Assembly (NCBI GenBank): GCA_016871815.1
Contig: VHBT01000002.1
Span: 17,359-81,358, forward strand
From: Candidatus Babelota bacterium
GTDB lineage: Bacteria > Babelota > Babeliae > Babelales > GCA-2401785
DNA: 64,000 nt
Direction: 5' to 3'
The notes below the pieces were generated by a model that was given only the letters and a program-made list of their open reading frames with translations, was not told where the DNA came from and searched no databases. Within the stretch, counting starts at the first letter, position 1. Each line of letters starts with the position of its first letter. The position numbers were made by a program, and so were the translations under genes. Shown piece by piece: positions 8,877 through 63,149 of the stretch.

Positions 8877-9275
8877 CTAACACGCACTCAAAACAACAAC
8901 CGCCGACGAACAGCAGCCCTCATGGGAAAGAGAAACAGAAATATCATGCAGGCCTGCAAGAAATTCACTTGTAATCATTATTAATGGCTGGTTGTTTTCT
9001 TTTTTTTCCACAAAAAAAGAACGCGAAAGTGTCAAAAATGGCGGAATATCACTCTTTTTTTGTATCACAAAAGATGAATAGGCCTTAAAAAAAGCCTCTT
9101 TCACCGCGTACCGGGAAGCCAAAAAAAGCTTTGCTCTTTCAGCATTTTGGAGAAAAAGTTCTTTAAATTGCGCAACCTCTTGTGGATGAAAAACTCTGAG
9201 CAGCATACGATCTGAATACAAATACCAATGTAAAAAACGGTTGTTTTTTACAATATCAATACCAACAAAGGTCAT
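8877..9275 (-). CDS. acpS: Holo-[acyl-carrier-protein] synthase (4'-phosphopantetheinyl transferase)
   Basis: 132 aa. GIDIV start, FLASRYAVKEAFFKA and ISVSLSHEG...AVVVL match AcpS motifs. 4-bp overlap with the upstream comM-like gene. Confidence 0.8.
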   Translation of the reverse strand: MTFVGIDIVKNNRFLHWYLYSDRMLLRVFHPQEVAQFKELFLQNAERAKLFLASRYAVKEAFFKAYSSFVIQKKSDIPPFLTLSRSFFVEKKENNQPLIMITSEFLAGLHDISVSLSHEGCCSSAVVVLSAC

Positions 9276-10804
9276 TTCGATTGGTGCCTATCAAAACATC
9301 GATACGAAAACGCTTCTTTAAGATGTGATTCATTAATTTTTTCTGACGACTCAAAATCAGCAATTGTTCGCGCTAATTTTAATATTTTATGATACGAACG
9401 CATGCTCAGACCCAAACGATCAAACATTTTTTTTACCAAAAGCTCAGCATTTGTGGTTAATGTACAAAATTGCTCGATCTGGCTTGGAGAAAGAAGCCCG
9501 TTGGGTATATCGCCCTGGCGGTTGCATCTAAATGCTCGAGCGATATCAACTTCTGCTTTCATCTCGGCGGAAGTTTTTTCTGTGGTTGAAGAATTTTTTA
9601 GCTCATCATATGACAACGATGCGACTCGCACATGAATATCAAGTCGATCAAGTAACGGCCCGGAAAGTTTTCCTAAATACTTTTCGATTGACTGCGAACT
9701 GCAGTTGCACTTTTTTGATTCATCACCATAAAAACCACACGGACAGGGATTGAGCGCTGCAACCAGCAAAAATGAGGCGGGAAAATCAACTGAATATTGA
9801 GCCCTGGAAATATGAACCACCTTTTCTTCCAACGGCTGGCGAAGAGTTTCGACCGTCGTACGTGAAAATTCTGTTAATTCATCCAAAAACAAGACCCCGT
9901 TGTGAGCCAAGCTAATCTCTCCTGGCTGCGGATGAGAACCTCCACCAACAAGACCAACTTGCGAAATGGTGTGATGTGGCGCACGAAATGGACGCGAATA
10001 GACAAGTTCATCTCGCGAGAATTTTCCAGCAACAGAATAAATTTTTGTAGTTTCTAACACCTCGGCAAACGTTTGCTGCGGTAATATGGTAGGAAGTCTT
10101 TTTGCAAGCATTGTTTTTCCACCCCCAGGAGATCCAATAAACAATGTATTGTGCCATCCCGCAGCTGCAAGCTGTAACGCTCGCTTTGCTTGGCGCTGCC
10201 CTTTTACCTGAGAAAAATCATCCAAAAAACGTTGCTGAACGGCAAGTAATTTTTTAAGGTCTGTCACTGAAGGCTCAAGAGTAATCTCACCTCGAAGCCA
10301 CGCCACGAGTTGAACTAAATTTTCAACCCCAATAACCTCAATTCCTTCTATCAATTGAGCTTCGTAAACATTTTGTAATGGAACAACAACGCGTTTTTTG
10401 CCAAATCCCAACACCCCATGAACAATCGAAACGGTTCCAATAATTGGTCTAATTTGACCGTCCAGCGACAATTCCCCAAGAAATACCGTTTCATCCAAAA
10501 AACTTTTATCCAATTTTACAAGCTGAGCAGCTTGCAACAACGCCACCGCAATAGGAACATCAAATAATGAATCTTGTTTTTTAAGATTAGCAGGCGCCAA
10601 ATTAACCGTAACCAAACGATCAGGCATCTTAAGGCCACAATTCTTAAAAGCTGCGCGAATACGGTCTTTACTCTCTTTGATAGCCTTATCGGGCAATCCA
10701 ACAATAAAAAAATTTACCAATCCAAACGATAAATCAACTTCAACTTCGATCAACGAAGCATTAACCCCAAGGGTTGTTGCAGAAAAAACTTTTGCGTGCG
10801 CCAC
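9272..10804 (-). CDS. comM: YifB/ComM-family Mg-chelatase-like AAA+ ATPase
   Basis: 510 aa. Typical N-terminus (ATTLGVNASLIEVEVDLSFGLVNFFIVGLPDKAIKESKDRI), Walker A GSPGGGKTMLAKRLPTILP and Cys cluster NPCPCGFYGDESKKCNCS. Confidence 0.85.
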   Translation of the reverse strand: MAHAKVFSATTLGVNASLIEVEVDLSFGLVNFFIVGLPDKAIKESKDRIRAAFKNCGLKMPDRLVTVNLAPANLKKQDSLFDVPIAVALLQAAQLVKLDKSFLDETVFLGELSLDGQIRPIIGTVSIVHGVLGFGKKRVVVPLQNVYEAQLIEGIEVIGVENLVQLVAWLRGEITLEPSVTDLKKLLAVQQRFLDDFSQVKGQRQAKRALQLAAAGWHNTLFIGSPGGGKTMLAKRLPTILPQQTFAEVLETTKIYSVAGKFSRDELVYSRPFRAPHHTISQVGLVGGGSHPQPGEISLAHNGVLFLDELTEFSRTTVETLRQPLEEKVVHISRAQYSVDFPASFLLVAALNPCPCGFYGDESKKCNCSSQSIEKYLGKLSGPLLDRLDIHVRVASLSYDELKNSSTTEKTSAEMKAEVDIARAFRCNRQGDIPNGLLSPSQIEQFCTLTTNAELLVKKMFDRLGLSMRSYHKILKLARTIADFESSEKINESHLKEAFSYRCFDRHQSK

Positions 10805-17692: not shown

Positions 17693-18559
17693 ATGCAGCT
17701 CTTCTTCATAGCGCTCATTATTTTAAGCATCTTTGATCGTACAATAGAAAACGCACGATATTGCCTAACCAAAGAACCGATAAATCATGAAAGCATACTA
17801 TCCAAAAATATTAGTTTGCAAATTCAAGAGCTGTGCGCAGAACAACCAAATAAATCTGCTCAAGCATGGCTATTTTTTGCTCATGGATACCCAGGCCCAA
17901 TAAATCTTACCCGAGACGAAGCCCAAGAAAATCTTTTATCTCAAAGTTTTTTTCTCCCACCATCAATTAATTTTTATTCATACGCTCCAGGGTTATGCTT
18001 TTTGCGCAACATAACAAACCTAGGACAAGGAAATGATATAGCTCAAATAGAAAAACACTTGCGCGCCTTTATTGAACATAAAAAAAATCACGCCCCTGAT
18101 AAACCTCTTATCGTAATGGGGCATTCTAATGGAGCCTCTTCTTTAATTGTTACTCTCTGCAAGCATCCTGAATTGGCCAATAATATTGCTCACATTATTT
18201 TACTTGCGCCTTATGCAAATATTTTGGACAACAGATATAAATCTATTTTTAAAAAGAAAAAAGAAATGGTTAGCGCCATTCAAAAAACAATTGCTCCTGG
18301 CTATTCACCTGATGAAAAAAACCCAATCGAATGGATATCTTCTTGTTTGCTGCCTAACCAAAATATCCCAATTACACTTATTCATGCGCAAGATGACTCT
18401 TTTATCAACATCAGTCACTCAAAATTAATTAAAAAAACACTGCGATCTGCTAAATACGCGAATGTATCACTGTTTACAATTCCTAATGGAGATCATCAAT
18501 TCAATACGGAGTGTGGCCCCCTTGATATCATTCACGATAAAATCATGCGGTTTTTATAA
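17693..18559 (+). CDS. Alpha/beta hydrolase (Ser nucleophile), secreted or anchored; paralogue of 19113..20087
   Basis: 288 aa. GHSNG nucleophile elbow, acid IHAQDDSFI and His in NGDHQF. Confidence 0.6.
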   Translation: MQLFFIALIILSIFDRTIENARYCLTKEPINHESILSKNISLQIQELCAEQPNKSAQAWLFFAHGYPGPINLTRDEAQENLLSQSFFLPPSINFYSYAPGLCFLRNITNLGQGNDIAQIEKHLRAFIEHKKNHAPDKPLIVMGHSNGASSLIVTLCKHPELANNIAHIILLAPYANILDNRYKSIFKKKKEMVSAIQKTIAPGYSPDEKNPIEWISSCLLPNQNIPITLIHAQDDSFINISHSKLIKKTLRSAKYANVSLFTIPNGDHQFNTECGPLDIIHDKIMRFL

Positions 18560-19112: not shown

Positions 19113-20087
19113 ATGAAAAAAACCTTATATTTAGCTATTTTATTTATGATAATCGGCCAAGTATGGCCAGCCAAAACAGAAGATTCATGTTCTTCAGAAA
19201 ATCCCCCAACACAAAAAGGTTCTTGGTTAATCCCCTCAATTCAAAAGGTATTATTAACTCTAGGTGGACTTTACGGACTAGCTCGCTGGACTATTACCAA
19301 AAAACAGGGCGAACTGGAATTGGCGACCTGGATCGGCGGGAAATATGCTCAATCTAAAAAAAATCCCAAGACTCAAATTGTTTTTTTTAGGGGAGTTGCT
19401 GCCGATGACCTTGACCCAGACCCATATCAAGCTGAAGTTTTATTCAGTAAATTTTTGCCCGAAAATAAGTATCGCTTTTTCGCTCCAGCATTTAAATGCC
19501 GCAGACGATTTATTTCATACGCACAAAAGTGGGATATTTTTCAGTGTAAAAAAAATTTAGAAGCTATTTTTGCTCTCAAAGAAAATGATCAAGTAAAAAC
19601 GATTGTTTTTGCTCAATGCAACGGAGCTTCTACCCTTATCGCAACTCTTTTTTCTTACCCTGAACTTGCAAACAAAATTGCTGGAATAATTTTATTTGCG
19701 CCGTACGATGATATTTCAGAAGTTGGGAATGCTCAAAAAATTCCAAAACAACTCTACTCAAAAACCATCATAAAACGTTCATTCCAAGCAGTTTGTGCGC
19801 CAAATTACTCACCTAGACAACCTACGCCATGCCAACTTATTGCCACAAAAACAGTTCGCGCAGATTTACCAATCGTGCTCGTTCATGCTGCAGACGATCA
19901 TATTATTCCATCATCAGAATATGAAAAAATACGCGACTGCTTTATGGCTCATGGATACACATGTTTTCATGCAATTCAACGAAATGTAATGGGACATCAT
20001 TCCTACCAAGTCTGGCGCGATAGTGAATCTCAAGAGTTTCAAGCTCAGCTACAAGGGATTATTCAAACGCATATGCTTAATAGTTAA
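19113..20087 (+). CDS. Alpha/beta-hydrolase paralogue with Cys in the nucleophile position
   Basis: 324 aa, collinear with 17693..18559. IVFAQCNGASTLIATLFSYPELANKIAGIILFAPY aligns to IVMGHSNGASSLIVTLCKHPELANNIAHIILLAPY, and APNYSPRQPTP to APGYSPDEKNP. Acid VHAADDHII and His in GHHSY. Confidence 0.6.
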   Translation: MKKTLYLAILFMIIGQVWPAKTEDSCSSENPPTQKGSWLIPSIQKVLLTLGGLYGLARWTITKKQGELELATWIGGKYAQSKKNPKTQIVFFRGVAADDLDPDPYQAEVLFSKFLPENKYRFFAPAFKCRRRFISYAQKWDIFQCKKNLEAIFALKENDQVKTIVFAQCNGASTLIATLFSYPELANKIAGIILFAPYDDISEVGNAQKIPKQLYSKTIIKRSFQAVCAPNYSPRQPTPCQLIATKTVRADLPIVLVHAADDHIIPSSEYEKIRDCFMAHGYTCFHAIQRNVMGHHSYQVWRDSESQEFQAQLQGIIQTHMLNS

Positions 20088-20187: not shown

Positions 20188-21636
20188 TTATTCGATATCC
20201 TTCGACCTACATTCGATCCAAAATTTTCGCTTACCTGAAAGGTTCAAATTAATCTTTTGATAAGCTATCGCATACGCAAAAACAGCTACATCAAAAGGGA
20301 ATTTATATGGCTCTAGATAATAACTACTTTTGGTAAGCCGCTCTGTAATTGTGCGCTTGCCGATCCCTAAAAACCCTTTATACCTGTACACGCAAGAGCA
20401 GCTTTTCGAATGGGTTAAATAAACGATAACCCGAGCATTCTCATCAACTCCAATTTCATTTAGACAAGCCCTATTCAAAATAATTTTATCATCAAACCAT
20501 CCGTTTTTAATTATTATTTCTGATTTTTTAGATTCAAGAGAGCAGAAAATCTGTGGCGCGAAAATTCCGAAAAAAAACGCTAATGCAATTGCTAGCGAAT
20601 ACCACACTGTTTTGAAATAGTCAGACAGCCACCATTCATTAACAGTAAAAACATCTTCCTTAAGATAGAAAAAACATCCAACAGCGACTAATACAAACAG
20701 CAGCCCTGCATATAAATAGATGTCATACAAAGATCGAACAACCAAACCATCAGATGTTTTCAAAAAATCAGATCCCATGGGAATTAATGAAGACTGAAGA
20801 AAATAAAACAAACCCGTAATTGTTAAACAAAATGTTACAAAAATTATGCCAACCCTAACAAACATACTTGGACTCAACACCACAGGCACATCTCCATCAA
20901 CCGCATGATCGGGAGAACCCTCAGTGCAATACTCTTTTTGATATACACCATGGTTCTCTTCTTCTTGCTCAGCATCCCACGATGCTTGGATTTCTCCCGA
21001 CGGCAAATTATCCACATTTAAATCTATTATTCCCGATGCAATCATATTCGCAAAAACCGCCAGCTGAAGAGGTGAAAATGATGTATCAATATCACAAAAA
21101 TCTTCTTTGAATGTTTCCGTTAGAAGCTGTTTAGAATTTATTTTTTTCAAGCAAATACAATTTTCAGTATGATTTAGCTTTACCTCAACATAAGAACCTG
21201 TACTGCTAGAAAATTCAACTGCGCAAATACATCCGGCGTCCAGCAAAATTGTATTTGCCCAAGCAGATTTAAGCTCAATCCCATTCGAATAAATCAGAGC
21301 AGAAAAATTCATTCGAGCCAAAAATGGAACTAACAAAAGCATAACAACCAGCAAAATGACACTCAGAGCAAGAACGAGTGCTACAAACTGAATGTTGGTA
21401 AAATAAAATTCTTCTTTCCAAAAAAATTTTGAAATCCAAATCATAGCCATTCCAAAAAAATAAAGTTTAAAAAAACCTATAAAATATGCTGGATAAGAAT
21501 GCCTCACTCGAATTGGACCATTTTCAATCAATACAAAATCTAATCCAAAGGGAACCCAATAATTTTTTCTGATCCAGTATGTTAATCCCAGAAAAGCTAG
21601 CAAACCAATAACAATTACTAGATACAACACGCACAA
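20188..21636 (-). CDS. Polytopic membrane protein made of two tandem copies of a novel module of about 215 aa
   Basis: 482 aa. Both halves share PIRVRHSYP / LVVRSLYD, NCICLKKI / SCSCVYRY and LAVFANMIASGIIDL / FPFDVAVFAYAIAYQKINL with the 218-aa ORF at 22679..23335. Confidence 0.7.
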   Translation of the reverse strand: MCVLYLVIVIGLLAFLGLTYWIRKNYWVPFGLDFVLIENGPIRVRHSYPAYFIGFFKLYFFGMAMIWISKFFWKEEFYFTNIQFVALVLALSVILLVVMLLLVPFLARMNFSALIYSNGIELKSAWANTILLDAGCICAVEFSSSTGSYVEVKLNHTENCICLKKINSKQLLTETFKEDFCDIDTSFSPLQLAVFANMIASGIIDLNVDNLPSGEIQASWDAEQEEENHGVYQKEYCTEGSPDHAVDGDVPVVLSPSMFVRVGIIFVTFCLTITGLFYFLQSSLIPMGSDFLKTSDGLVVRSLYDIYLYAGLLFVLVAVGCFFYLKEDVFTVNEWWLSDYFKTVWYSLAIALAFFFGIFAPQIFCSLESKKSEIIIKNGWFDDKIILNRACLNEIGVDENARVIVYLTHSKSCSCVYRYKGFLGIGKRTITERLTKSSYYLEPYKFPFDVAVFAYAIAYQKINLNLSGKRKFWIECRSKDIE

Positions 21637-22121: not shown

Positions 22122-22689
22122 CCGTTAAATGGAGTATCTGTAATTCAATATAATTTTCAACAAATTTTTTATGTTTTTCTCGCTCTTGTTTCCATGCAAG
22201 CATAAGTTCACCGTGACTTAACCCATGTCTATCGGATTTATTTTGCAAAAACGTTATAAATTGCCACTCTTGCTTTGGCTCATTCACAGTTTTTTTCCGC
22301 CTATCCATTTCTTCTTGCCAAAACCTTGCAAATTCCTGATACGACGGTGGATTACCCGCAAGCCAACGCTCATTAAGCCAGTCGATTCCAAACGCGGTGA
22401 AGTGAAAATGGTCCCCAATAAGTTTTTTGAAAAACAATCGAGTCGCTAAATCATTTTTGTACGCACCCTTAAGCATTAAACTATGGGGCTCAAGAGAAGA
22501 AATAATTCCTTTTTTCGCACAAGAAACAATCGGGACCTTCGGCATAGCCAACTCTTTTCCCGTTTCCAAAAAATGAATTATACGTCGCGCCAAAATACCT
22601 TTGGCTCCGACTGATGAAATATTAAGACGGACACAAAGATCTTTTAATTCGGCAACATGTAAATAAAAAATGCTTTGATTAAACAGCAT
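22111..22689 (-). CDS. SAP-like DNA-binding domain protein with a DUF6434-like C-terminal region
   Basis: 192 aa. The N-terminus FYLHVAELKDLCVRLNISSVGAKGILARRIIHFLETG fits the SAP helix-extended-helix pattern. YKNDLATRLFFKKLIGDHFHFTAFGIDWLNERW resembles the domain that accompanies SAP in bacterial proteins (recollection only). Confidence 0.5.
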   Translation of the reverse strand: MLFNQSIFYLHVAELKDLCVRLNISSVGAKGILARRIIHFLETGKELAMPKVPIVSCAKKGIISSLEPHSLMLKGAYKNDLATRLFFKKLIGDHFHFTAFGIDWLNERWLAGNPPSYQEFARFWQEEMDRRKKTVNEPKQEWQFITFLQNKSDRHGLSHGELMLAWKQEREKHKKFVENYIELQILHLTVVK

Positions 22690-23335
22690 TAAAAAGACCC
22701 TTTTTTAAACCTTGCTTACTCATATCAATTACTCCTGATGCAATAGCATAAGCAAAAATCGCAGGGTCAAAAGGAAACAAGTCTCCCGACAAAAGACATG
22801 TTTTACGATACAGCCGTTGCTCATACCAATAACTAGATTTTCGACGATTGCCTCCTATATATATATTAATATTTTTTTTACATAAACAATTCTTCAAATG
22901 CACAAATGACACCCTTATACGAAGATTCTCTCGTTGAGAATTTGGAATAAGCTCCACTGACCTAAGACACTTCCTATCAAAAAGCACCTCTAGTTTGTCT
23001 CTATCACGGACTTGTATACTTTTAGAACTCCATATCAAACTCGGTCGCGCATGTGCATCAATAAATATGAGAAACGAGAATCCCAAAAAAATAATCAATC
23101 CAAGCAATACATGAATTCGTGCCAAAATAAGACTCACAAATATGTTCCCCGCCCACACAGAGTAGACACTTCGAACACGCAAGATATTATTTTTAATCGT
23201 AAAAGACTTCCCTAAAGGAACAAAGTCTAAAAAAAGATTCCACCACATAAAAAAATTAAAAGCAAAACACAAAATAAATATCGGTAAAAAAAACTCTAAA
23301 AAGCCTTTTAGGATGCTAATGTAATTTTTGACCAT
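22679..23335 (-). CDS. Membrane protein, single copy of the novel module of about 215 aa
   Basis: 218 aa. TM helices, ILRVRSVYS, HLKNCLCKKNI and FPFDPAIFAYAIASGVIDM shared with both halves of 20188..21636. Confidence 0.7.
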   Translation of the reverse strand: MVKNYISILKGFLEFFLPIFILCFAFNFFMWWNLFLDFVPLGKSFTIKNNILRVRSVYSVWAGNIFVSLILARIHVLLGLIIFLGFSFLIFIDAHARPSLIWSSKSIQVRDRDKLEVLFDRKCLRSVELIPNSQRENLRIRVSFVHLKNCLCKKNINIYIGGNRRKSSYWYEQRLYRKTCLLSGDLFPFDPAIFAYAIASGVIDMSKQGLKKGLFNAV

Positions 23336-23467
23336 TCATATTTCCAAAAAATGAATTATACGTCGCGCCAAAATACCTTTGGCTCCGACAGATGAAATGT
23401 TAAGACGGCAACAAAGATCTTTTAATTCCGCAACATGCAAATAAAAAATGCTTTCGCCAAATAACAT
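23336..23467 (-). pseudogene. Truncated duplicate (43 codons plus stop) of the 5' end of the SAP-domain gene
   Basis: MLFGESIFYLHVAELKDLCCRLNISSVGAKGILARRIIHFLEI* compared with the N-terminus of 22111..22689. 127 bp (23341-23467) matches 22563-22689 with 12 mismatches by my count. Its TGA directly abuts the ATG of the 218-aa gene. Confidence 0.7.
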
Positions 23468-23473
23468 AAAAAG

Positions 23474-24743: not shown

Positions 24744-25085
24744 TTAGTGCAACTTTTGACCATTCATAACTCGTTCATCAACACCAGCAAGACAAATAGC
24801 CCCAGAATCATCCGCAAAACCAACAAGTAAAAACTGGGAAACAAATCCCGCAATATTTTTCTCTCCAAGGTTCACACAACCGATCACTTTGCGTCCGACA
24901 AGAGTCTCTGGGGTATAATGGGCAGTAACTTGTGCTGATGTCTGCAAAACTCCAAACACTGCTCCAAAATCAACCCAGATTTTATATGCAGGTTTGCGCG
25001 CTCGCTCATTGACTTCAGCTTTGAGTACTGTGCCCGATCGAAGCTCTACTTTTTCAAAATCTTCATATGAAATAATTGCCATCAT
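24744..25085 (-). CDS. csaA: CsaA-type tRNA-binding (EMAP/OB) domain protein
   Basis: 113 aa. FEKVELRSGTVLKAEVNERARKPAYKIWVDFG...SAQVTAHYTPETLVGRKVIGCVNLGEKNIAGFVSQFLLVG closely parallels B. subtilis CsaA. Confidence 0.8.
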   Translation of the reverse strand: MMAIISYEDFEKVELRSGTVLKAEVNERARKPAYKIWVDFGAVFGVLQTSAQVTAHYTPETLVGRKVIGCVNLGEKNIAGFVSQFLLVGFADDSGAICLAGVDERVMNGQKLH

Positions 25086-49460: not shown

Positions 49461-50819
49461 ATGGCTAAGCAAAAAACTATTTTTTTTTGCACAAACTGTG
49501 GCCAAGAATCAGCTCGCTGGATCGGATGCTGCACCCAATGCAACGAATGGAATACCTACACCGAATTTAAAGAAGCAAAAAACCCAAAAAAATCCGCTCC
49601 TTTAAACAAAGTGTCATCAACGGTCATGCATTCGCTTAATGAAATTTCAACCGAACAGTTTCCTCGATTTATAAGTGGAATTGACGAGTGGGATAGAGTC
49701 TCGGGAGGCGGCATTCTTCCAGGAGCATTTATTATTCTTACCGGCGATCCAGGTGTTGGCAAATCAACATTACTCCTTCAACTCGGACACGCACTATCGA
49801 CCAACGACAAAACAGTTTTTTATTTTTCCTCAGAAGAATCATTGCAACAAGTTAAAAACCGCGCAACAAGAATTGGAATCGCTCACACAGCGATGCAATT
49901 TTCTGACCAAACCCATCTAGAAACAATTATTGCTATCGCAAAAGAACAAAAACCCCACATCATGATCATCGATTCAATCCAAAGCTGTATTGTCGAAAGT
50001 GATGAATATTCATTTCCCGGTACCGTTGGGCAACTCAAAACCGCTGCGTTTGAACTCATGCGCCTTGCAAAAGAAAACAATATCGCAATCATCATTACCG
50101 GTCACATAACAAAAGATGGTACCATGGCTGGACCAAAAGTACTTGAGCACATGGTGGATGCGGTATTTTACTTGCAGGGTGATGACAGATTTGAAACGCG
50201 TATTTTGAGAGCCGTAAAAAATCGATTTGGCACCATCAACGAGATTGGCTTTTTCCAAATGAATGCCGACGGCATGTCGCAAGTGTCTGATATCAACGCT
50301 CTTGTTATTCAAAATGCATCAATCAGCCCTGGAGCATCACTCATCTGCTCAATGGAAGGCACTCGGCCTGTGCTTGTTGAAGTTCAAGCACTGTGTATTG
50401 AATCCAAATTTGGCACACCACAACGAGTTATCAGCGGCCTTGATCATAAACGAGTTGTGCTCGTTGCAGCGATTTTAGAAAAGTATCTCCGCATTAAACT
50501 CAGCTCACAAGATATCTTCTTTAAAGTCACTGGCGGCTTTACGGTTAAAGAGACGGGCAGCGATTTGGGAATAGCCCTGGCATTATTGTCATCCTACCTT
50601 CAAAAAGCTCTTCCTCCACACACGATGGCCCTTGGAGAAATGAGTCTAACAGGTCACATAAAACCAATTTCATCAAGCGAAAAACAATTACTCGAAGCGC
50701 ATAAGTTTGGTATCAAAAATTTAATAACTTCACACAAGACCGTAGCCGGAAAAAATAAATTTGAAACAGTCACAGGCCTCCGCAGCGTATACGACCTGGT
50801 CGCTATTTTCCCAGAATAA
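49461..50819 (+). CDS. radA: DNA repair protein RadA/Sms
   Basis: 452 aa. Zn finger FFCTNCGQESARWIGCCTQCNEWNT, Walker A GDPGVGKSTLLLQ, KNRFG motif and a Lon-like C-terminal domain. Confidence 0.95.
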   Translation: MAKQKTIFFCTNCGQESARWIGCCTQCNEWNTYTEFKEAKNPKKSAPLNKVSSTVMHSLNEISTEQFPRFISGIDEWDRVSGGGILPGAFIILTGDPGVGKSTLLLQLGHALSTNDKTVFYFSSEESLQQVKNRATRIGIAHTAMQFSDQTHLETIIAIAKEQKPHIMIIDSIQSCIVESDEYSFPGTVGQLKTAAFELMRLAKENNIAIIITGHITKDGTMAGPKVLEHMVDAVFYLQGDDRFETRILRAVKNRFGTINEIGFFQMNADGMSQVSDINALVIQNASISPGASLICSMEGTRPVLVEVQALCIESKFGTPQRVISGLDHKRVVLVAAILEKYLRIKLSSQDIFFKVTGGFTVKETGSDLGIALALLSSYLQKALPPHTMALGEMSLTGHIKPISSSEKQLLEAHKFGIKNLITSHKTVAGKNKFETVTGLRSVYDLVAIFPE

Positions 50820-50856
50820 CCAGCAGATTAATATGTATCTTTTTTAAGCCTGAAAC

Positions 50857-50888
50857 AGTAATTGTGGACTTAAAAGTCCACAATTACT
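50857..50888 (+). terminator. Strong stem-loop 38 nt downstream of radA (probable terminator)
   Basis: agtaattgtggactt (50857-50871) and aagtccacaattact (50874-50888) are perfect 15-nt reverse complements, followed by an A/T-rich tract. Confidence 0.6.
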
Positions 50889-50927
50889 CAAAATATTTTT
50901 ATTCATGAAATATTTTAGGAAGAGCTC

Positions 50928-51548
50928 ATGGGCAACAATCTGTCTCATTTATTTTTAAGCGTAATAATGTTTTTAAGCTGCGCATCATTGGAATCAATTT
51001 TTTTTGCGGGATATTTTAAAGCAAGAAGAGACTATGCTCATGCCGTACAAATTAACAAGTTTGAAGAAACGCTACACGGTAAACATCCAAACAAATGTAC
51101 TTCTTTATTTTCCGAAGAAGAACTTACAGATTGGCTTATTGGCAATCCATGGTTTATGCCTCCCGACAAAGATGCTCGCATGCCCCTATTTGGCCCTTGC
51201 ATAAAAAGATACACATTTAAAAAAAATAATTTATTTAAATTCTCGCTATCAAAACTACCTCACTACTCAGGAAAAATCGCTCGCTGTAAAACATATCATC
51301 ATGTTTTTGTAAATATTCCAATTATTGAAAAACAATGCTCGATGGATAAGCTAAAATTCTCATGGCCTTATGCGCTTTCTATGTCAATTTACCTAAAAAA
51401 TGGATATAGAAATAAATTTAGCTCCTGCAATAAGCCATCAATTATAACGTTGAAACAAGGTAAAATAACATTTCGAGAAGAACTCCCTGATGAGGTCTGG
51501 ATTAAAAAATTTTATGTTGACCCTGTAGATTGGACTCCTAAGTTCTAA
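50928..51548 (+). CDS. Hypothetical protein (206 aa) with an N-terminal hydrophobic segment
   Basis: ORF with MGNNLSHLFLSVIMFLSCASL, Cys- and Lys-rich, no family recognised. It lies between radA and a relic of the radA 3' end. Confidence 0.5.
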   Translation: MGNNLSHLFLSVIMFLSCASLESIFFAGYFKARRDYAHAVQINKFEETLHGKHPNKCTSLFSEEELTDWLIGNPWFMPPDKDARMPLFGPCIKRYTFKKNNLFKFSLSKLPHYSGKIARCKTYHHVFVNIPIIEKQCSMDKLKFSWPYALSMSIYLKNGYRNKFSSCNKPSIITLKQGKITFREELPDEVWIKKFYVDPVDWTPKF

Positions 51549-51567
51549 TTTTTATTAACATTTTTGA

Positions 51568-51657
51568 ATAAAAACCGCTTTTTGCAAAAACAAATTCGAG
51601 AGTATTCTTGGCCTTAGGAGTGTTTACGACCTTGTATCGATTTTTCCTGAAGAATAA
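51568..51657 (+). pseudogene. Relic duplicate of the last ~29 codons of radA
   Basis: Translation IKTAFCKNKFESILGLRSVYDLVSIFPEE* compared with the radA C-terminus ITSHKTVAGKNKFETVTGLRSVYDLVAIFPE*. The frame is closed upstream by TGA at 51565-51567. Confidence 0.7.
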
Positions 51658-51786
51658 TTCGCTACAACAAACAACAATACCAAAAAAGAAAACCGCCTAA
51701 TAAGTATTCTTATTGATTGTGCAGAACAATTACAAAAACATATTTCACACCCAATTAATCGGGTTTAAGAACACGCAACACCACTC

Positions 51787-52245
51787 TTGGACACCTGGCA
51801 TGCGACTGCGCTGGATGCTCAACAAAAAACAGTTGCTCTTTTTATCAATCAAGTCAGTGAATTTTGCCTAATTAGTGAAATTTCTGGAAAAATTTCACTT
51901 GAAAACGCTGTTAGCCTTTTTATCAACGCACTAAATGAACAACTTAAAGAAAATAGCGCAATCAATCAGTATCACCACACGTTTGATCATAAAATTAAAC
52001 ATGGCGTTACATTTACTAAAGGCTCAGAATCAGAAGTACACTGGATTGTATCTGCTATCGAAAAATTATTGATGGAAAATCCTGAATTAGCAAAAGATAC
52101 CGCACGACTTTCACACAAAATAAACAATTCAGAATTTCCTGAGCTTAAATTTCACACACCAACTCAAAAATTATCCCTCACCCTGGTATCACTTCCCCAC
52201 GACGAGAATAAAAAAGGCCCATCAAAAATGGGCCTACATTTTTAG
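51787..52245 (+). CDS. Hypothetical protein (152 aa, TTG start)
   Basis: ORF only, no family recognised. It ends inside a terminator-like hairpin. Confidence 0.4.
   Translation: MDTWHATALDAQQKTVALFINQVSEFCLISEISGKISLENAVSLFINALNEQLKENSAINQYHHTFDHKIKHGVTFTKGSESEVHWIVSAIEKLLMENPELAKDTARLSHKINNSEFPELKFHTPTQKLSLTLVSLPHDENKKGPSKMGLHF
52215..52243. terminator. Bidirectional Rho-independent terminator between convergent ORFs
   Basis: aggcccat (52215-52222) pairs with atgggcct (52228-52235) around a 5-nt loop. It is flanked by an A6 run upstream (a U-run on the minus strand) and by acaTTTTT downstream. Confidence 0.65.
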
Positions 52246-52473
52246 TTACTTTTTAATCAATTGACGTGCCGTTACAATAAACACGCCTCTTCTTTTACGT
52301 GCATCGACGGCAATCGGAGAATTTCCATAATAATCACATGCGGAGCATTTTCTTGACGATTTTCTTGAGTCAACACTAGAAGGTGTTGCTGTGGCAGAGC
52401 TCGCACCAGAAGAAGATCGCCCAACCTTTTTAACAAAATCAGACAATGAATCTTCTGGAATAGCAACACTCAA
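52246..52473 (-). CDS. Small hypothetical protein (75 aa, TTG start), Ser/Arg/Lys-rich
   Basis: ORF only. It is followed on its own strand by the 52215-52243 hairpin plus U-run. Confidence 0.3.
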   Translation of the reverse strand: MSVAIPEDSLSDFVKKVGRSSSGASSATATPSSVDSRKSSRKCSACDYYGNSPIAVDARKRRGVFIVTARQLIKK

Positions 52474-52524
52474 CTCCGCTAATGGCTTGCTATCAACATG
52501 AGCTGATTCTTCATGAATTTCTTT

Positions 52525-53025
52525 CTAATCGCCTTCTTGATTAGAACAAAAAAAACAATCCGAAGACGTTGCTGAGTCAAAAACAGCTAAAAGAGCTATC
52601 ATAAGGCCTTCAATTCTCTCAATTCCTTTTTCTGGATCAATAGAATTTACCCAAATTTGCGCTTTTGCGCGATCAAGAAGCTCATCCAACCGAGCCCTTG
52701 TGCCTGCATACAAATCGGCTATCAAAGAGATATCATCAATAGAAACCATGTCAAGAAGAACAGCTTTATAAAAAAATAAATTTACAAAATTTATTTGCAA
52801 GGAAGGGCGATCGCTCATCCGTAACAACGATTTTAAAAACAAATCAAAGGACCTTTTTAAAGAACTCGTAGAATCATAAATCGAAGCATCAACAGATTTT
52901 GTAAATAATTGTTGAAATTGATATTTAAGCTCACCCTCTGACAACGAAAACAGTGAATGAACGGCAAAAATAGTACACAAAAAAAAGATTTTTAAATATT
53001 TTTTCACAACAAAACCGATCAACAA
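52525..53025 (-). CDS. Secreted hypothetical protein (166 aa)
   Basis: Signal-like KIFFLCTIFAVHSLFSLS, predicted helical, no family recognised. Confidence 0.5.
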   Translation of the reverse strand: MLIGFVVKKYLKIFFLCTIFAVHSLFSLSEGELKYQFQQLFTKSVDASIYDSTSSLKRSFDLFLKSLLRMSDRPSLQINFVNLFFYKAVLLDMVSIDDISLIADLYAGTRARLDELLDRAKAQIWVNSIDPEKGIERIEGLMIALLAVFDSATSSDCFFCSNQEGD

Positions 53026-53106: not shown

Positions 53107-53127
53107 TAGACAATCCGGGCGTTGTTA
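53107..53127 (-). repeat. 21-bp exact copy of the prfA 3' terminus (direct repeat partner of 54359-54379)
   Basis: tagacaatccgggcgttgtta occurs at 53107-53127 and at 54359-54379. On the minus strand both copies encode NNARIV plus the last two bases of the stop codon. Confidence 0.85.
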
Positions 53128-53182: not shown

Positions 53183-54340
53183 CTATTTAAGATTTGCTTT
53201 AAAGAAATCGGTAATGCCTTGATTAATAGCCTGCAATGCAATCTTACCATTTACCGCCCCAATCATAGCCGCAGTAGCTTGATTTTTAAAATAGATAGGC
53301 GAGTCTTTCAACAATAAAAGATCTGTAAATCCATTATGCCCTAGCCCGCTAATGACCTCACTATTTAGCGTGCGAATTGCGATCAAAGCCTCACGACGAG
53401 CATCAGCAATAAAAGCAAGAGGGCAATTAAGTTGAGCAGAAAGCTCTTCATCGCTCGAAGGAAGATAAAATGTCTCAACAGATGTTTGCGCAAAATAAAT
53501 TTTGCTTGATTTTGAAGGGATAACATCACCCAGTGCAACACCATCAAGACTTACACATGCCCTAAATAGGTTTTTTTTAGCCGCTAACATTAATGCAACA
53601 ACTCCACCAAAAGAGTGCCCCATCACACCAACTCGATCCATATCAAAAAGCCCATGCAAAAAAGACTCTGAATCGTCTTGCATCTTTTCTATTTCACTAA
53701 CTACCGAATCTACATCCGAAATCCATAATTCCTGATCTTCGTATTTATAGTAATCAGAAAGAAAAGAACTTTGCTTATCTTTATTAAACGTTACCGTTCG
53801 ATTGCCAGAAATAACTACCTTATTGGCAAAATGAGTATGCGATATTCCAACAACAATATATCCATGACTTACTAATTCATGAGCAAACAAACTATACATT
53901 TCAGGCGCACTTGCAAGATACCCATGAAGTAAAAAAATTACTGGAAATTTTTGCCGCACAGGTTGAGCTTTTTTTTGTACTGGAATTTTAATAGATCGAA
54001 GATCAGAAACTGATTCACGCTCCACTCCCATAAAATGATTAAACGTTTGCACGGCAGCTATAGCCTCATCATAATATGATTCAAGAGGATACGCTTCATC
54101 ATGTATTGCGGGATACCAAAAACGAACCTTCAATTCTCGTGGTTCGCTTGCAAAAAAGGGATCGTGCCTATCTTTATCAATCACCTGATGAACTATCGTG
54201 CCTACCTTATAGGGCCCTGTCAAATTTAAATCCAAGGCGTTTTTTAATTCCTTTTGATCACATTCAAGTTTTAATGACATAAAATAAAATCCCAAAACCC
54301 CGCTCAAAAACAATACGGCGATTAAAAATAACTTGTTCAT
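53183..54340 (-). CDS. Secreted alpha/beta hydrolase, PAF-acetylhydrolase/lipase-like
   Basis: 385 aa with a signal anchor. FPVIFLLHGYLASAPEMYSLFAHELVSHGYIVVGISHT and GVMGHSFGG resemble the PAF-AH (PF03403-like) family. A C-terminal GLGHNGFTD could supply the catalytic His. Confidence 0.55.
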   Translation of the reverse strand: MNKLFLIAVLFLSGVLGFYFMSLKLECDQKELKNALDLNLTGPYKVGTIVHQVIDKDRHDPFFASEPRELKVRFWYPAIHDEAYPLESYYDEAIAAVQTFNHFMGVERESVSDLRSIKIPVQKKAQPVRQKFPVIFLLHGYLASAPEMYSLFAHELVSHGYIVVGISHTHFANKVVISGNRTVTFNKDKQSSFLSDYYKYEDQELWISDVDSVVSEIEKMQDDSESFLHGLFDMDRVGVMGHSFGGVVALMLAAKKNLFRACVSLDGVALGDVIPSKSSKIYFAQTSVETFYLPSSDEELSAQLNCPLAFIADARREALIAIRTLNSEVISGLGHNGFTDLLLLKDSPIYFKNQATAAMIGAVNGKIALQAINQGITDFFKANLK

Positions 54341-54357: not shown

Positions 54358-55422
54358 CTAGACAATCCGGGCGTTGTTACGTCGCTCAATGCGTTCATTT
54401 TCGATAAGAGGATCAATCAGATCCTGCATATCACCATTCATGACCAAATCAAGTTTTTTAAGTGTCACATCGACACGATGATCTGTAATTCGGTTTTGAG
54501 GATAATTATATGTTCTAATTTTCTCGGAACGCTCACCTGTTCCGATTTGTGACTTACGATTACTGGATCGCTCAGCCTCAAGCTTCTGCTTCTCGGCTTC
54601 ATAAATTCGCGCCTGAAGCACTTTCATCGCTTTTGCTTTGTTTTTAATTTGAGATCGCTCATCCTGACATGTTACAACAACTCCCGTTGGGATATGAGTT
54701 ATGCGAACCGCTGAATCTGTGGTATTAACGTGCTGACCGCCCGCACCACTAGAACGGTAATAGTCGATACGCAAATCGCTTTGATTTATAGAAATTTCAA
54801 CTTCATCAACCTCTGGCAAAACCGCAACAGTAACTGTTGATGTATGAATTCGACCAGCCCCTTCGGTTGCTGGAACTCGTTGAACACGGTGCACTCCAGA
54901 CTCAAACTTTAAAGATCGGTACACGCCCTTGCCTTTAATATAGGCGATAAGCTCTTTGCAGCCTCCAATATCAGACGAGCTAATATCAACTACAGAAACT
55001 TCCCAGCCCAATGAATTAGCATAAGCAGTATACATTCGGAATAAATCTGCCACAAAAAGACCTGCCTCCAAGCCTCCCGTTCCTGCACGAATTTCCAAGA
55101 AAACAGAATTATCATCGTGCTCATCGGCCGGATAAAGCTTATCTTCTAGCTTTTTTTCCAATGCGACCTGCTTAGCCTTTAAAGAAATCAATTCTTCTTT
55201 GTATAAATCAGAAAGCTCATCACCCTGCGAAATAAGCTGAACACAATAGGCTTCTTCACGCGAAACCTGCTCAAGTTCATCATTAGTTTCCAAAAGGCCA
55301 TTAAGCAAAGAGCTTCTTTTCTGCAAATCGACTCTGTCTTTTGCGGGAAGAGAAGCTCCATCGTTTAATTTTTCAAGAATTTTGTTGTATTCCGCTCTAA
55401 CAGAACCCCAATCTATCATCAA
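54358..55422 (-). CDS. prfA: Peptide chain release factor 1
   Basis: 354 aa. PAT tripeptide ([17 protein letters not shown]) and GGQ motif ([23 protein letters not shown]). Confidence 0.95.
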
Positions 55423-62021: not shown

Positions 62022-62496
62022 AAAAATAAAAAGCGCATTATTTAAATTCGCAACATTTCATGTCAACAATAATCGAATCCTTGGTGGCGTCACGCTGTCT
62101 CTTGGGGCCTTTCCGCTGATTATTCTCGGACGATCGGCATACCACCTTTCCCCAGATCTGTTTTATAATTGTTTTATGATATTTATGTCATTGCTCTCAT
62201 ATGGTCTTTATTTTGTTTTCGAATCACTTCCATCAGAAAAACAAAACACCATCACGGCAAATCGCATTCTTGGCATGCTTATTACCTACTTTTACATTCC
62301 GATGCAACTTAAGTTCATCATTTTAGCCTTAATTGTTTTTCATATGACCAGAAGCCTTGTAAATCAGGTTATTCTTTCGAAAACTGAAATCGACCTAAGC
62401 GCACTCTCTGGACTTATTGGCATTTTCGCTCTTGATGTTGTTGCGGGAATTTGTTCAAACATTTGTATGCTTATTTTACGAATAATTCTTGCATGA
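62005..62496 (+). CDS. Hypothetical integral membrane protein (163 aa)
   Basis: Four to five hydrophobic helices. Translationally coupled to lspA upstream and to comFC downstream (ATGA overlap). Confidence 0.5.
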   Translation: MNFPSEKIKSALFKFATFHVNNNRILGGVTLSLGAFPLIILGRSAYHLSPDLFYNCFMIFMSLLSYGLYFVFESLPSEKQNTITANRILGMLITYFYIPMQLKFIILALIVFHMTRSLVNQVILSKTEIDLSALSGLIGIFALDVVAGICSNICMLILRIILA

Positions 62497-63149
62497 TTAG
62501 TCAACTGAGCTCAATTTTCAACACGCTGATCAATTTTGCCTTTCCAAGCTTTTGTGCAGAATGCCACATATTACTTTCTAGAGAAGAAATTTTATGTAAC
62601 TCCTGTGCAGCAAGTCTTTCACAAGTGTGTAGCTCAAACCTATTAATCTCCAAAAAAAAATCACTCACCGTACACGCCCTAACTCATTATTCTGGAATCA
62701 CCAAAACACTTGTTTTAAGAAAAAATCAAGGACAATCAAAAACCTTTGAAAAACTTGCGCGGCTCACACTCAAGAATCTTTCGCCAGAAATCAAAGACGT
62801 TGACTATTTTATTCCGATTCCTATTCATTGGACTAAAAAACTTCAACGCGGCTTCAATCAAACAGAAATACTTGCAAAAACATACGCAGATCTTAGTGGG
62901 GCCCAAATGCTTTCGTGCCTCATAAAAAAAGTTCGCACAAAACCCCAAACCCAGCTCAGCAAAGAAGAGCGACAAATCAATATCAAGGGCTCTTTTTCGG
63001 TCGATGAAAAATATAAAGAATTATTATTTAATAAAAAAATCATCTTGGTTGATGATGTCATGACGACTGGAGCAACCCTCACAGAGGCTGCTCGAGTACT
63101 ATCAAATCATCAACCGAAAATAATTACTGCAATTGTTGTATGTCGTTAG
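62493..63149 (+). CDS. comFC: ComF-family phosphoribosyltransferase-domain protein (start at the internal ATG)
   Basis: FPSFCAECHILLSREEILCNSCAASL Zn-finger-like N-terminus and PRTase motif IILVDDVMTTGATLTEA. The ATG at 62493 overlaps the upstream stop. Confidence 0.8.
   Translation: MISQLSSIFNTLINFAFPSFCAECHILLSREEILCNSCAASLSQVCSSNLLISKKKSLTVHALTHYSGITKTLVLRKNQGQSKTFEKLARLTLKNLSPEIKDVDYFIPIPIHWTKKLQRGFNQTEILAKTYADLSGAQMLSCLIKKVRTKPQTQLSKEERQINIKGSFSVDEKYKELLFNKKIILVDDVMTTGATLTEAARVLSNHQPKIITAIVVCR

Follow-up and report, generated by a model that had tools for sequence, protein, structure and literature searches.

An uncultivated Candidatus Dependentiae bacterium, represented by a metagenome-assembled genome (MAG), carries the last ~30 codons of radA a second time downstream of the working gene. 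The repeat lies in a 64,000-nucleotide stretch of DNA that was analysed as a whole (the window), within an islet of variable gene content between radA and prfA. This relic is most likely a scar between two versions of the islet rather than the sign of a novel type of mobile cassette. Specifically, we assign a probability of about 0.62 to the reading that it was left by recombination between two diverged haplotypes of the islet. The features that define the repeat are as follows.

49461-50819, + strand: live radA, 452 amino acids, matching the NCBIfam RadA equivalog at 484 bits (cut-off 403)
50718-50819, + strand: tail of live radA, codons ~420-452 plus the stop, the copy that matches the relic
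51550-51657, + strand: non-coding relic of the radA tail, clear from 51571 (KTAFCKNKFESILGLRSVYDLVSIFPEE, then a stop), the first ~20 nucleotides being decayed

A tblastn comparison of RadA with the window matches the relic with E = 4e-7. Similarly, the Smith-Waterman score for the repeat is 102, compared with 33.5 +/- 3.5 and a maximum of 45 among 300 dinucleotide-shuffled versions of the downstream 5 kb. Thus, the second copy of the radA end reported in a preliminary description of this DNA is real, and its similarity survives permutation. The repeat is ~87-108 nucleotides long, and the in-register offset between the live tail and the relic is 835 nucleotides, instead of the 838 first reported, because the relic carries one extra GAA codon. 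The two copies share 64-68% of their nucleotides, and their longest identical run is only 8 nucleotides (TACGACCT). Live radA reads through without disruption, and the relic lies in a frame that has no start codon and is closed on its upstream side by a TGA at 51565-51567.

The pattern of differences between the copies is informative. Over 22 codons (50751-50816 versus 51586-51651), 18 of 22 residues and 45 of 66 nucleotides (68%) are identical, and the identities at codon positions 1, 2 and 3 number 18, 20 and 7 (each out of 22). Over 27 codons there are 6, 4 and 19 differences at the three positions (chi-square p = 0.001; binomial p = 4e-4). This concentration at third positions indicates that the copies diverged under purifying selection, while both were being translated, as had been proposed from the sequence at first reading.

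Two ancestries can be distinguished among related genomes, wherein type A is like the clade of L019, L011 and L021 and type B is like L006, a member of the window's sister lineage. The genome backbone is sister to L006, as judged from shared-derived residues in atpG, tdk and prfA: in a polarised amino acid test, the sites in common with L019 versus L006 number 4 versus 15, 2 versus 7 and 1 versus 14, respectively. The same test on radA yields 10 sites in common with L019 and 3 with L006, which bears out the earlier suspicion that a second, diverged radA lineage was involved. A sliding window of amino acid identity along radA gives no clear breakpoint, and therefore informative-site tests were needed to trace the switches in ancestry. 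Strict informative nucleotide sites assign codons 1-48 to type B (3 A and 13 B sites), codons 49-320 to type A (59 and 20), codons 321-360 to type B (3 and 11) and codons 361-412 to type A (7 and 1), and the tail from codon 413 to 452 is mixed (6 and 5). The patchiness between adjacent segments is significant (Fisher p = 4e-5 and 2e-4). By these counts live radA is a mosaic: most of its body belongs with L019, L011 and L021, in contrast to the flanking genes, which side with L006.

The relic carries the type A state at all seven of its diagnostic sites, compared with a 4 to 4 division in the live tail (Fisher p = 0.08, the live tail being only weakly assignable). It is closest to L021 (24 of 28 amino acids) and L011, with which it shares the residues KTA, VS and an extra E, and it is 74% identical in nucleotides to the orthologues of other species versus 64% to the live tail beside it. 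Given its 7 of 7 diagnostic sites, the relic is probably the displaced tail of an imported radA. The ancestry switch in live radA falls between codons ~412 and ~428, and the left end of the relic corresponds to codon ~420.

The gene order tsaE-yacP-atpG-tdk-radA> ... <prfA-rpmE is kept in all relatives, and the genes of the islet vary by genome. In the sister lineage (L006 and L020), radA is followed by a gene for a 147 amino acid protein, a hairpin and a gene for a 205 amino acid protein. The window has the following elements between the two copies of the radA tail.

50826-50856, + strand: what is left of the 3' end of a 147-aa-family gene that this lineage has deleted; it aligns to the last codons of the L020 and L006 gene
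50857-50888, + strand: 15-bp perfect hairpin followed by a T-rich tract, terminator-like (z = -3.95)
50928-51548, + strand: intact ORF of 206 amino acids, from a lineage-restricted family and part of the resident haplotype

The ~30-nucleotide remnant directly follows the radA stop, and its homology to relatives is contiguous with that of the hairpin. The hairpin is conserved upstream of the 206-family gene, and in L020, which has no relic, the stem is retained through two compensatory pair changes. There is no second copy of it in the window, contrary to the idea that identical hairpins might mark other junctions. The 206 amino acid protein, which has a predicted lipoprotein-like N-terminus, is 42% identical to L006_205 (E 4e-44) and 38% identical to P0124. 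It has no Pfam match and no phage match in mobile-element collections, and its family comprises only three cluster representatives among 1.84 billion proteins. Members are known at this locus only, in L006, L007 and L020 and in L024, where the gene faces a 231-family gene.

Thus, the preliminary description, in which only a hairpin and an orphan ORF lay between the copies, was right about the hairpin, but it missed the remnant, and the ORF is not an orphan. Nor does this gene appear to be foreign cargo, because relatives have homologues at the same locus together with the hairpin and the 147 gene. The further proposal that foreign DNA arrived with its own radA 3' end holds insofar as a displaced tail from a diverged lineage is present. 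However, what is foreign to the genome backbone is the relic together with the greater part of the radA body and, probably, the 152 amino acid gene described below, and not the 206 gene.

The empty site anticipated earlier (radA followed directly by the sequence from 51658 onwards) is absent from the neighbourhoods of radA homologues that are 76-91% identical, and none of these neighbourhoods carries a relic. Neither parental haplotype is found in any database contig. There are no copies of gene termini in the loci of relatives (~110 kb in all), and therefore such scars are not a general feature of the clade. No tRNA or Rfam element occurs within the interval, and neither GC nor GC3 content singles out a gene as foreign.

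Three features lie on the right-hand side of the islet.

51549-51557, + strand: putative illegitimate junction (J1), with the probable microhomology T(C/T)TTAT, placed by means of proxy sequences
51700-52245, + strand: 152-aa-family pseudogene (Pfam DUF6933), aligned with L017_170 and L021_184
52246-53025, - strand: 231-aa-family pseudogene, listed as ORFs of 165 and 75 amino acids, with a single stop at 52525-52527

The 152-family pseudogene has lost its start (ATA at 51700) and has an in-frame TAA at 51766-51768. Its homologues are found in L021, which belongs to clade A, and in L017, where the gene faces a 231-family gene as it does in the window. The 231-family pseudogene is equally distant from its L006 and L019 homologues. 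At J1 the window reads TAATTTTTATTAAC. After the stop of the 205 or 226 amino acid ORF, L006 and L024 read TAATTCTTATTTTCC, and type A radA genes read AA(T/C)CTTATAAC at codons 420-423. The motif T(C/T)TTAT is therefore common to the type B sequence after the 206-family stop (L006, L024) and to codons 420-422 of type A radA (L019 and others). Thus, J1 likely lies at a microhomology of 5-6 nucleotides, with which TCTTAT is compatible, although the proxy genomes are ~20-25% diverged.

These observations suggest how the locus might have formed. Haplotype B, the type of the organism's own lineage and of L006 and L020, would have comprised radA, the 147 gene, the hairpin and the 206 gene, with the latter facing a 231-family gene. 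Haplotype A, from a lineage near L019, L011 and L021, would have comprised radA followed by a 152-family gene facing a 231-family gene. The present locus would then be a type A radA broken near codon ~420 by a type B segment, which would run from the replacement tail through the 147 remnant and the terminator hairpin to the 206 gene. Entry to this segment would have been a homologous crossover within the last ~40 codons of radA, and exit an illegitimate joint at 5-6 nucleotides of microhomology just past the 206 stop. After such an exit the type A tail would remain, untranslated, as a relic ahead of the 152 gene. Homology-facilitated illegitimate recombination (HFIR) would yield the locus as it is seen, and so would a template-switch excursion from one homologous template to another in the course of recombinational repair; neither route would need a dedicated recombinase. 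Of the two modes proposed in the preliminary description, the homology-facilitated one fits the junctions, with a homologous anchor in radA and a switch from type A to mixed ancestry near the left end of the relic.

The data show directly the repeat with its selection signature, the mosaic ancestry, the synteny and the pseudogenes, whereas we infer the microhomology, the sequence of events and the way in which the DNA entered. Natural transformation is a plausible route, because the genome encodes RadA and a YifB/ComM-family protein (568 bits, above the cut-off) as well as a ComF-like protein that scores below the NCBIfam cut-off.

Two other sites in the window have repeated gene ends, as had been noted from the outset, and the claim that they resemble the radA site in architecture is upheld by the following features.

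54358-55422, - strand: prfA, with the live copy of the repeat at 54359-54379
53107-53127, - strand: prfA relic of the final 6 codons and TA, matching the live end at 21 of 21 nucleotides
53183-54340, - strand: 385-aa PAF-acetylhydrolase-like alpha/beta hydrolase (Pfam PF03403), between prfA and the 21-nucleotide relic
23341-23472, - strand: 5'-end relic of the SAP-domain gene (6 nucleotides upstream plus 42 codons), 132 nucleotides, 90% identical to 22563-22694
23317-23340, - strand: relic of the last 7 codons of a tRNA-binding (CsaA-like) gene, matching 24745-24768 at 21 of 24 nucleotides

The prfA direct repeat is exact, whereas orthologues differ from it at 3-8 of the 21 nucleotides, at synonymous sites. 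A single diverged donor block that carried both the radA and the prfA tails is therefore disfavoured, and the repeat requires either a donor that was almost identical or a recent event of its own. The hydrolase gene is absent from the islets of all relatives examined, and mobile-element collections hold only distant plasmid homologues. An A-like 3' part of prfA, indicated by an unpolarised test, was dropped because the outgroup-polarised test gave one site only. At the SAP site, the csaA-tail relic (from the gene at 24744-25085; peptide match MNGQKLH) adjoins the SAP relic and overlaps the start of a 218 amino acid ORF. Both pairs there are ~10-12% diverged, which is expected if a single junction joined a csaA-397-SAP haplotype to a csaA-218-SAP haplotype. 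Perhaps the lineage stacks haplotypes additively with unusual frequency, joining ~20%-diverged DNA at core-gene termini through one homologous and one illegitimate junction. This would account for three scars in 64 kb, with DNA possibly taken up during co-infection of one protist host and with a RadA/ComM-dependent mode, or a trans-acting enzyme that targets gene ends, underlying it, although we regard such a habit as quite unlikely.

Several other explanations bear on the radA site. The source is a MAG and one Logan contig stops inside the SAP repeat, as might be seen if a metagenome assembler had joined two co-occurring strains. Such a chimera is extremely improbable, since the 3.7-kb interval is 100% identical in independent assemblies (one JGI contig and two separate Logan runs) and hence is not an assembly artefact. 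Moreover, the putative microhomologies at the junctions are far shorter than any assembly k-mer, and with just 64-68% identity the radA copies give k-mers no means of collapsing or bridging them. Exact matches to the RadA, PrfA, 206-aa and 397-aa methylase proteins came from the same haplotype only. The arrangement of the copies as direct repeats 835 nucleotides apart would also suit a tandem duplication that arose in place at the 3' end of radA, with neutral decay of the downstream copy. That account is effectively refuted by the signature of purifying selection, by the derived states that the relic shares with another clade and by its being no nearer to the live tail than to other species' orthologues.

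The notion that a one-gene cassette (radA tail, hairpin and 206 gene) was inserted in an att-like manner by a recombinase acting in trans, with the same at prfA and SAP, draws on the fact that gene-terminus duplications that restore the ORF are typical of integrative elements, on the presence of three sites within 64 kb and on an exact prfA repeat of att-core length. It is nevertheless highly unlikely. The absence of integrases and transposases asserted in the preliminary description is confirmed for the genes checked across most of the window, and tyrosine and serine recombinase Pfam domains are lacking in the genes within 10 kb on either side and in the other ORFs tested (most of those of 120 aa or more). 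Att-like or dedicated delivery is further opposed by the 8-nucleotide longest run between the radA copies and by repeats of 21, ~100 and 132 nucleotides that have no common motif. In addition, what is duplicated at the SAP site is a 5' end, next to which lies a further relic derived from a different gene. The hairpin occurs only once in the window and corresponds to a conserved terminator-like element in a relic-free relative, and the sister lineage has the 206 gene in the syntenic position. A doubtful but less remote alternative is that a larger type A fragment, with most of radA and the 152 gene onward, was added downstream of the 206 gene, after which it gene-converted patches of live radA and was trimmed by deletions to its final ~30 codons. 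This would accommodate the patchy ancestry of live radA, the type A relic and the ongoing decay of the islet (two pseudogenes and the deleted 147 gene). However, one more deletion would be required, with its start precisely at the stop codon of the 206 gene, and this scheme gives no reason for the relic to begin where the ancestry of live radA switches. Recombination between such direct repeats would also tend to remove the 206 gene.

Recombination between two islet haplotypes, as favoured here, affords a base-pair-level view of DNA exchange between an uncultivated, presumably host-dependent member of the Dependentiae and a ~20%-diverged lineage, both inside a core repair gene and in the adjoining accessory islet. 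The relic permits both parental haplotypes to be reconstructed. It also calls for caution, because gene-terminus duplications next to small unknown genes can mimic the att sites of a new cassette system and yet can come from ordinary one-sided homologous and illegitimate recombination. For annotation, radA should be treated as chimeric and the two neighbouring sets of ORFs as pseudogenes.

Among known systems, integrative elements and integrase-less CIMEs target the 3' ends of protein-coding genes, and the insert's copy replaces the gene end while the original is displaced downstream, as here. However, no integrase is encoded among the genes checked around the radA site, which also lacks element-like genes and an identical attL/attR core (8 nucleotides, versus 21 identical nucleotides at prfA), and the insert is the ancestral arrangement of the locus. 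Integron cassettes have an attC hairpin at their boundary and an intI gene, whereas this hairpin lies upstream of the gene with a T-tract after it, and no integrase was found. Neisseria has minimal mobile elements, hot-spot islets that lie between conserved genes and are swapped through flanking homologous recombination. They share with this islet the short interval between conserved genes, the lineage-specific content and the recombined flanking core genes, but they give clean allelic replacement with no relic, whereas two alleles are stacked in tandem here.

Insertions with long target duplication and without mobility genes were described by the Kobayashi laboratory for restriction-modification genes in Helicobacter, Haemophilus, Neisseria and others (PMC2853133), and single crossovers can give duplications of 109-950 bp (PMC3240628). 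As in the window, direct repeats of tens to hundreds of base pairs flank the insert and overlap the 3' end of a neighbouring gene, and there is no transposase or integrase. The cargo here is not a restriction-modification system, and the near-identical repeats expected from one target differ from the radA copies, which are 64-68% identical and of different ancestry. Such an insertion would leave repeats of more than 30 bp that correspond to one copy in a genome with the empty site, and no such genome was found among the relatives. This process fits the prfA (21 of 21 nucleotides) and, roughly, the SAP (132 nucleotides, 90%) sites best.

The best reading of the radA locus is that it resembles HFIR or a template switch, with one homologous and one illegitimate junction. 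HFIR is described in Acinetobacter, Streptococcus pneumoniae and Pseudomonas stutzeri, and it has been called on to account for the Vibrio cholerae T6SS effector/immunity arrays, in which displaced gene ends likewise persist as relics (PMC5361080). In its classical form HFIR usually removes DNA from the recipient, whereas here the last ~30 codons of the anchor are duplicated; the anchor gene is also a multi-patch mosaic, and the organism, unlike those hosts, is uncultivated and presumably host-dependent. In both cases one junction lies in a conserved anchor gene, here within homologous sequence where ancestry passes from 7 A and 1 B sites (codons 361-412) to 6 and 5 (codons 413-452). The other junction of HFIR lies in non-homologous DNA at a microhomology of 3-10 nucleotides, and J1 would be its counterpart, given its probable motif of 5-6 nucleotides. 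The donor is likewise foreign to the recipient, as the radA body and relic group with L019, L011 and L021 while atpG, tdk and prfA group with L006. Finally, the locus gains genes that a diverged donor carried in its own version of it, and the displaced end of the gene survives as a relic, as do genes downstream, with no mobility genes taking part.

The last codons of radA are repeated downstream of the gene in register at an offset of 835 nt, a distance that reflects one extra GAA codon in the downstream copy. The features of this site are as follows.

49461-50819 (+), live radA, which passes the NCBIfam RadA equivalog cut-off
50826-50856, remnant of about 30 nt from the 3' end of a 147-aa gene, directly 3' of the radA stop
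51571-51657 (+), non-coding relic of the radA tail
51700-52245, pseudogene encompassing the 152-aa ORF
52246-53025, pseudogene of the 231-aa family

Over 22 codons the live tail and the relic share 18 residues and 45 of 66 nucleotides, with 18, 20 and 7 identities at the three codon positions; over 27 codons, the corresponding differences number 6, 4 and 19 (chi-square p = 0.001). A tblastn search of the window with RadA recovers the relic at E = 4e-7, and the local alignment score is 102 compared with 33.5 +/- 3.5 for 300 dinucleotide shuffles. In addition, 3.7 kb of the locus matches a JGI contig and two Logan assemblies at 100% identity. Thus, the recurrence reported in the preliminary description is genuine, has firm statistical support and did not arise through faulty assembly. 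The frame of the relic is closed on its upstream side by TGA and carries no start codon.

The two tails appear to have different ancestries. When the locus of relative L012 is used as the outgroup, the derived residues that the window shares with relatives L006 and L019, respectively, number 15 and 4 for atpG, 7 and 2 for tdk, and 14 and 1 for prfA, but 3 and 10 for radA. This indicates that the genome backbone is sister to L006 and that radA conflicts with it. Along the gene, the strict nucleotide sites, at which L019 and L011 agree and L006 differs, alternate between assignment to the L019/L011/L021 clade (A-type) and to the L006 state (B-type).

Strict diagnostic sites in live radA
Codons 1-48: A-type 3, B-type 13
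Codons 49-320: A-type 59, B-type 20
Codons 321-360: A-type 3, B-type 11
Codons 361-412: A-type 7, B-type 1
Codons 413-452: A-type 6, B-type 5

Fisher tests on the counts of adjacent segments give p = 4e-5 and 2e-4. Judged from these sequence comparisons, live radA is a recombinant mosaic whose body groups with L019/L011/L021 and whose flanking genes group with L006. A patch of B-type sequence spans codons ~328-356. The relic is A-type at 7/7 diagnostic sites, like most of the live radA body, while the live tail is split 4A/4B. The relic also has KTA, VS and an extra terminal E in common with L011 and L021, and its nucleotide identity is 74% to clade-A tails versus 64% to the live tail. The most fitting interpretation is that the relic once formed the end of the A-type gene from which the live radA body derives, which agrees with the earlier proposal of a displaced tail.

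The RadA protein is recorded at NCBI under a Candidatus Dependentiae bacterium. The gene order tsaE-yacP-atpG-tdk-radA> ... <prfA-rpmE-surA is kept in relatives whose RadA proteins are 76-91% identical. However, the few genes separating radA from prfA vary in every genome compared and belong to a limited set of rapidly evolving families.

Genes between radA and prfA, named by length in amino acids; (-), minus strand
Window: 206, radA relic, 152, 75+165(-), prfA relic, 385(-)
L006/L020: 147, 205, 231(-)
L009: 369, 186(-), 277
L012: 393
L019: 310, 144, 225(-), 256, 187(-)
L021: 143, 280, 145, 174, 144, 184, 444, 182(-)

Within this interval of the window, 206 and 385 are intact. The 152-aa ORF belongs to the DUF6933 family (Pfam), with homologues in L021 (clade A) and in L017, where the gene likewise faces a 231-family gene; its ancestral start codon has become ATA (51700), and the frame is interrupted by a TAA at 51766. 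The 165-aa and 75-aa ORFs are two pieces of the same 231-family frame, split by one internal stop. Database records annotate these pseudogenes as separate hypothetical proteins. A G+C-rich palindrome between the two convergent pseudogenes (52215-52235, AGGCCCATCAAAAATGGGCCT) has T-runs on both strands and resembles a bidirectional terminator. Among the relatives, L012 (identical to L018, JBEITS010000008.1) is titled 'Campylobacterota bacterium' in its GTDB/NCBI record yet carries a Dependentiae-like locus with the same synteny and a RadA that is 76% identical, and this bin is probably mislabelled or contaminated. A RadA homologue from another metagenome (P0009, 529 aa, JGI) repeats ~240 residues internally, which may be a genuine tandem duplication or an assembly artefact.

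The 206-aa gene had been regarded as orphan cargo, a view that its relatives contradict. Its product is 42% identical (E 4e-44) to the 205-aa protein at the same locus in L006 and 38% identical to the homologous protein P0124. A set of 1.84 billion proteins contains no more than three cluster representatives of this family. In both L006 and L024, a gap of 3 nt separates the homologue from a 231-family gene that faces it. The spacer between radA and 206 can be aligned with the 147-205 spacer of L020, including a hairpin whose stem is preserved there through two compensatory pair changes. L006, L019 and L021 retain an intact 147-aa membrane-protein-family gene, which in L012 is joined to a DUF2608 domain. 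The homology of 206, the shared spacer and hairpin, and the 147 remnant together indicate that the arrangement radA-147-hairpin-206 is common to the window and L006/L020. The hairpin itself, which has no second copy in the window, is a terminator-like element.

The relic probably reaches back to about 51550, equivalent to radA codon ~420. In B-type genomes the 205/226 stop is followed by TAATTCTTATTTTCC, codons 420-423 of A-type radA genes read AA(T/C)CTTATAAC, and the window reads TAATTTTTATTAAC at the junction. Judged on these proxy sequences, the two parts could have been joined at 5-6 nt of microhomology. The structure reads as an A-type radA into which a B-type segment carrying the tail, the 147 remnant, the hairpin and 206 is set near codon 420, with a homologous entry and a probable microhomology exit at almost one radA coordinate. 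Such a product would be expected from homology-facilitated illegitimate recombination, and the earlier suggestion of homology-facilitated recombination holds. The same product could come from a template-switch excursion involving two homologous templates. An A-type haplotype might have been imported and the B-type segment might have re-entered afterwards, or a single complex event might have given both. In other bacteria, YifB/ComM, ComF-like proteins and RadA have links to natural transformation. The window encodes RadA, a YifB/ComM-family ATPase (9272-10804, -) above its NCBIfam cut-off, and a ComF/GntX-like phosphoribosyltransferase-domain protein (62451-63149, +) whose match falls below the cut-off, which makes DNA uptake by transformation plausible.

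Two further repeats noted in the preliminary description are also real, and a relic of another gene lies at the second of them.

53107-53127 with 54359-54379, prfA repeat, 21 nt, exact
22563-22694 with 23341-23472, 5' end of the SAP-domain gene and its relic, 132 nt, 90% identity
23317-23340, 3' relic of a tRNA-binding CsaA-like gene, 24 nt, 21/24 identical to 24745-24768

A 385-aa PAF-AH-like hydrolase gene sits between prfA and the 21/21 identical copy of its last 21 nt, a position where a 231-family gene follows prfA on the same strand in L006. Orthologues differ at synonymous sites within these 21 nt, and thus the prfA event was recent or the donor was near-identical. At the SAP site, the minus-strand order is csaA-like, a 397-aa SpoU methylase, SAP 5' relic, csaA 3' relic, a 218-aa ORF and SAP. 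The csaA relic, which was absent from the preliminary description, abuts the SAP relic and runs into the beginning of the 218-aa ORF, and both relics are equally diverged (~10-12%). This is the outcome that would be expected from a single illegitimate joint between csaA-397-SAP and csaA-218-SAP haplotypes. Each of the three structures is consistent with tandem stacking of two versions of a single locus.

Some other features are located near the SAP site. Logan contig L025 (SRR7990527_261153) stops ~114 nt past the methylase gene, within the SAP relic, and the 132-nt repeat probably caused this break. A 482-aa protein (20188-21636, -) comprises two tandem copies of the domain of the 218-aa ORF (22679-23335, -), at about 26% identity each, and this membrane-protein family has no Pfam match. 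The neighbouring alpha/beta-hydrolase paralogues at 17693-18559 and 19113-20087 are 32% identical over ~205 residues (E 1e-20).

The suggestion of one-gene cassettes with an unexplained delivery system is not borne out by these data. Neither the genes around the three sites nor the other ORFs tested encode an integrase or transposase domain. The radA-site interval contains no tRNA or Rfam element, and no motif or hairpin is common to the three sites. The repeats are unequal in length (21, ~100 and 132 nt) and one site uses a 5' end. No comparable gene-end scars occur at the relatives' loci examined.

The radA tail repeat is most likely a fresh example of an already known type of recombination scar. 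For Vibrio T6SS arrays, displacement by homology-facilitated illegitimate recombination, with gene ends persisting as relics, has been put forward (PMC5361080). Restriction-modification genes provide documented cases of insertion with long target duplication in which mobility genes are absent (PMC2853133), and in E. coli single crossovers of truncated circles duplicate 109-950 bp (PMC3240628). Unlike in those three precedents, the copies of the radA repeat derive from different lineages, and the main value of this scar is as evidence for inter-lineage exchange in Dependentiae.
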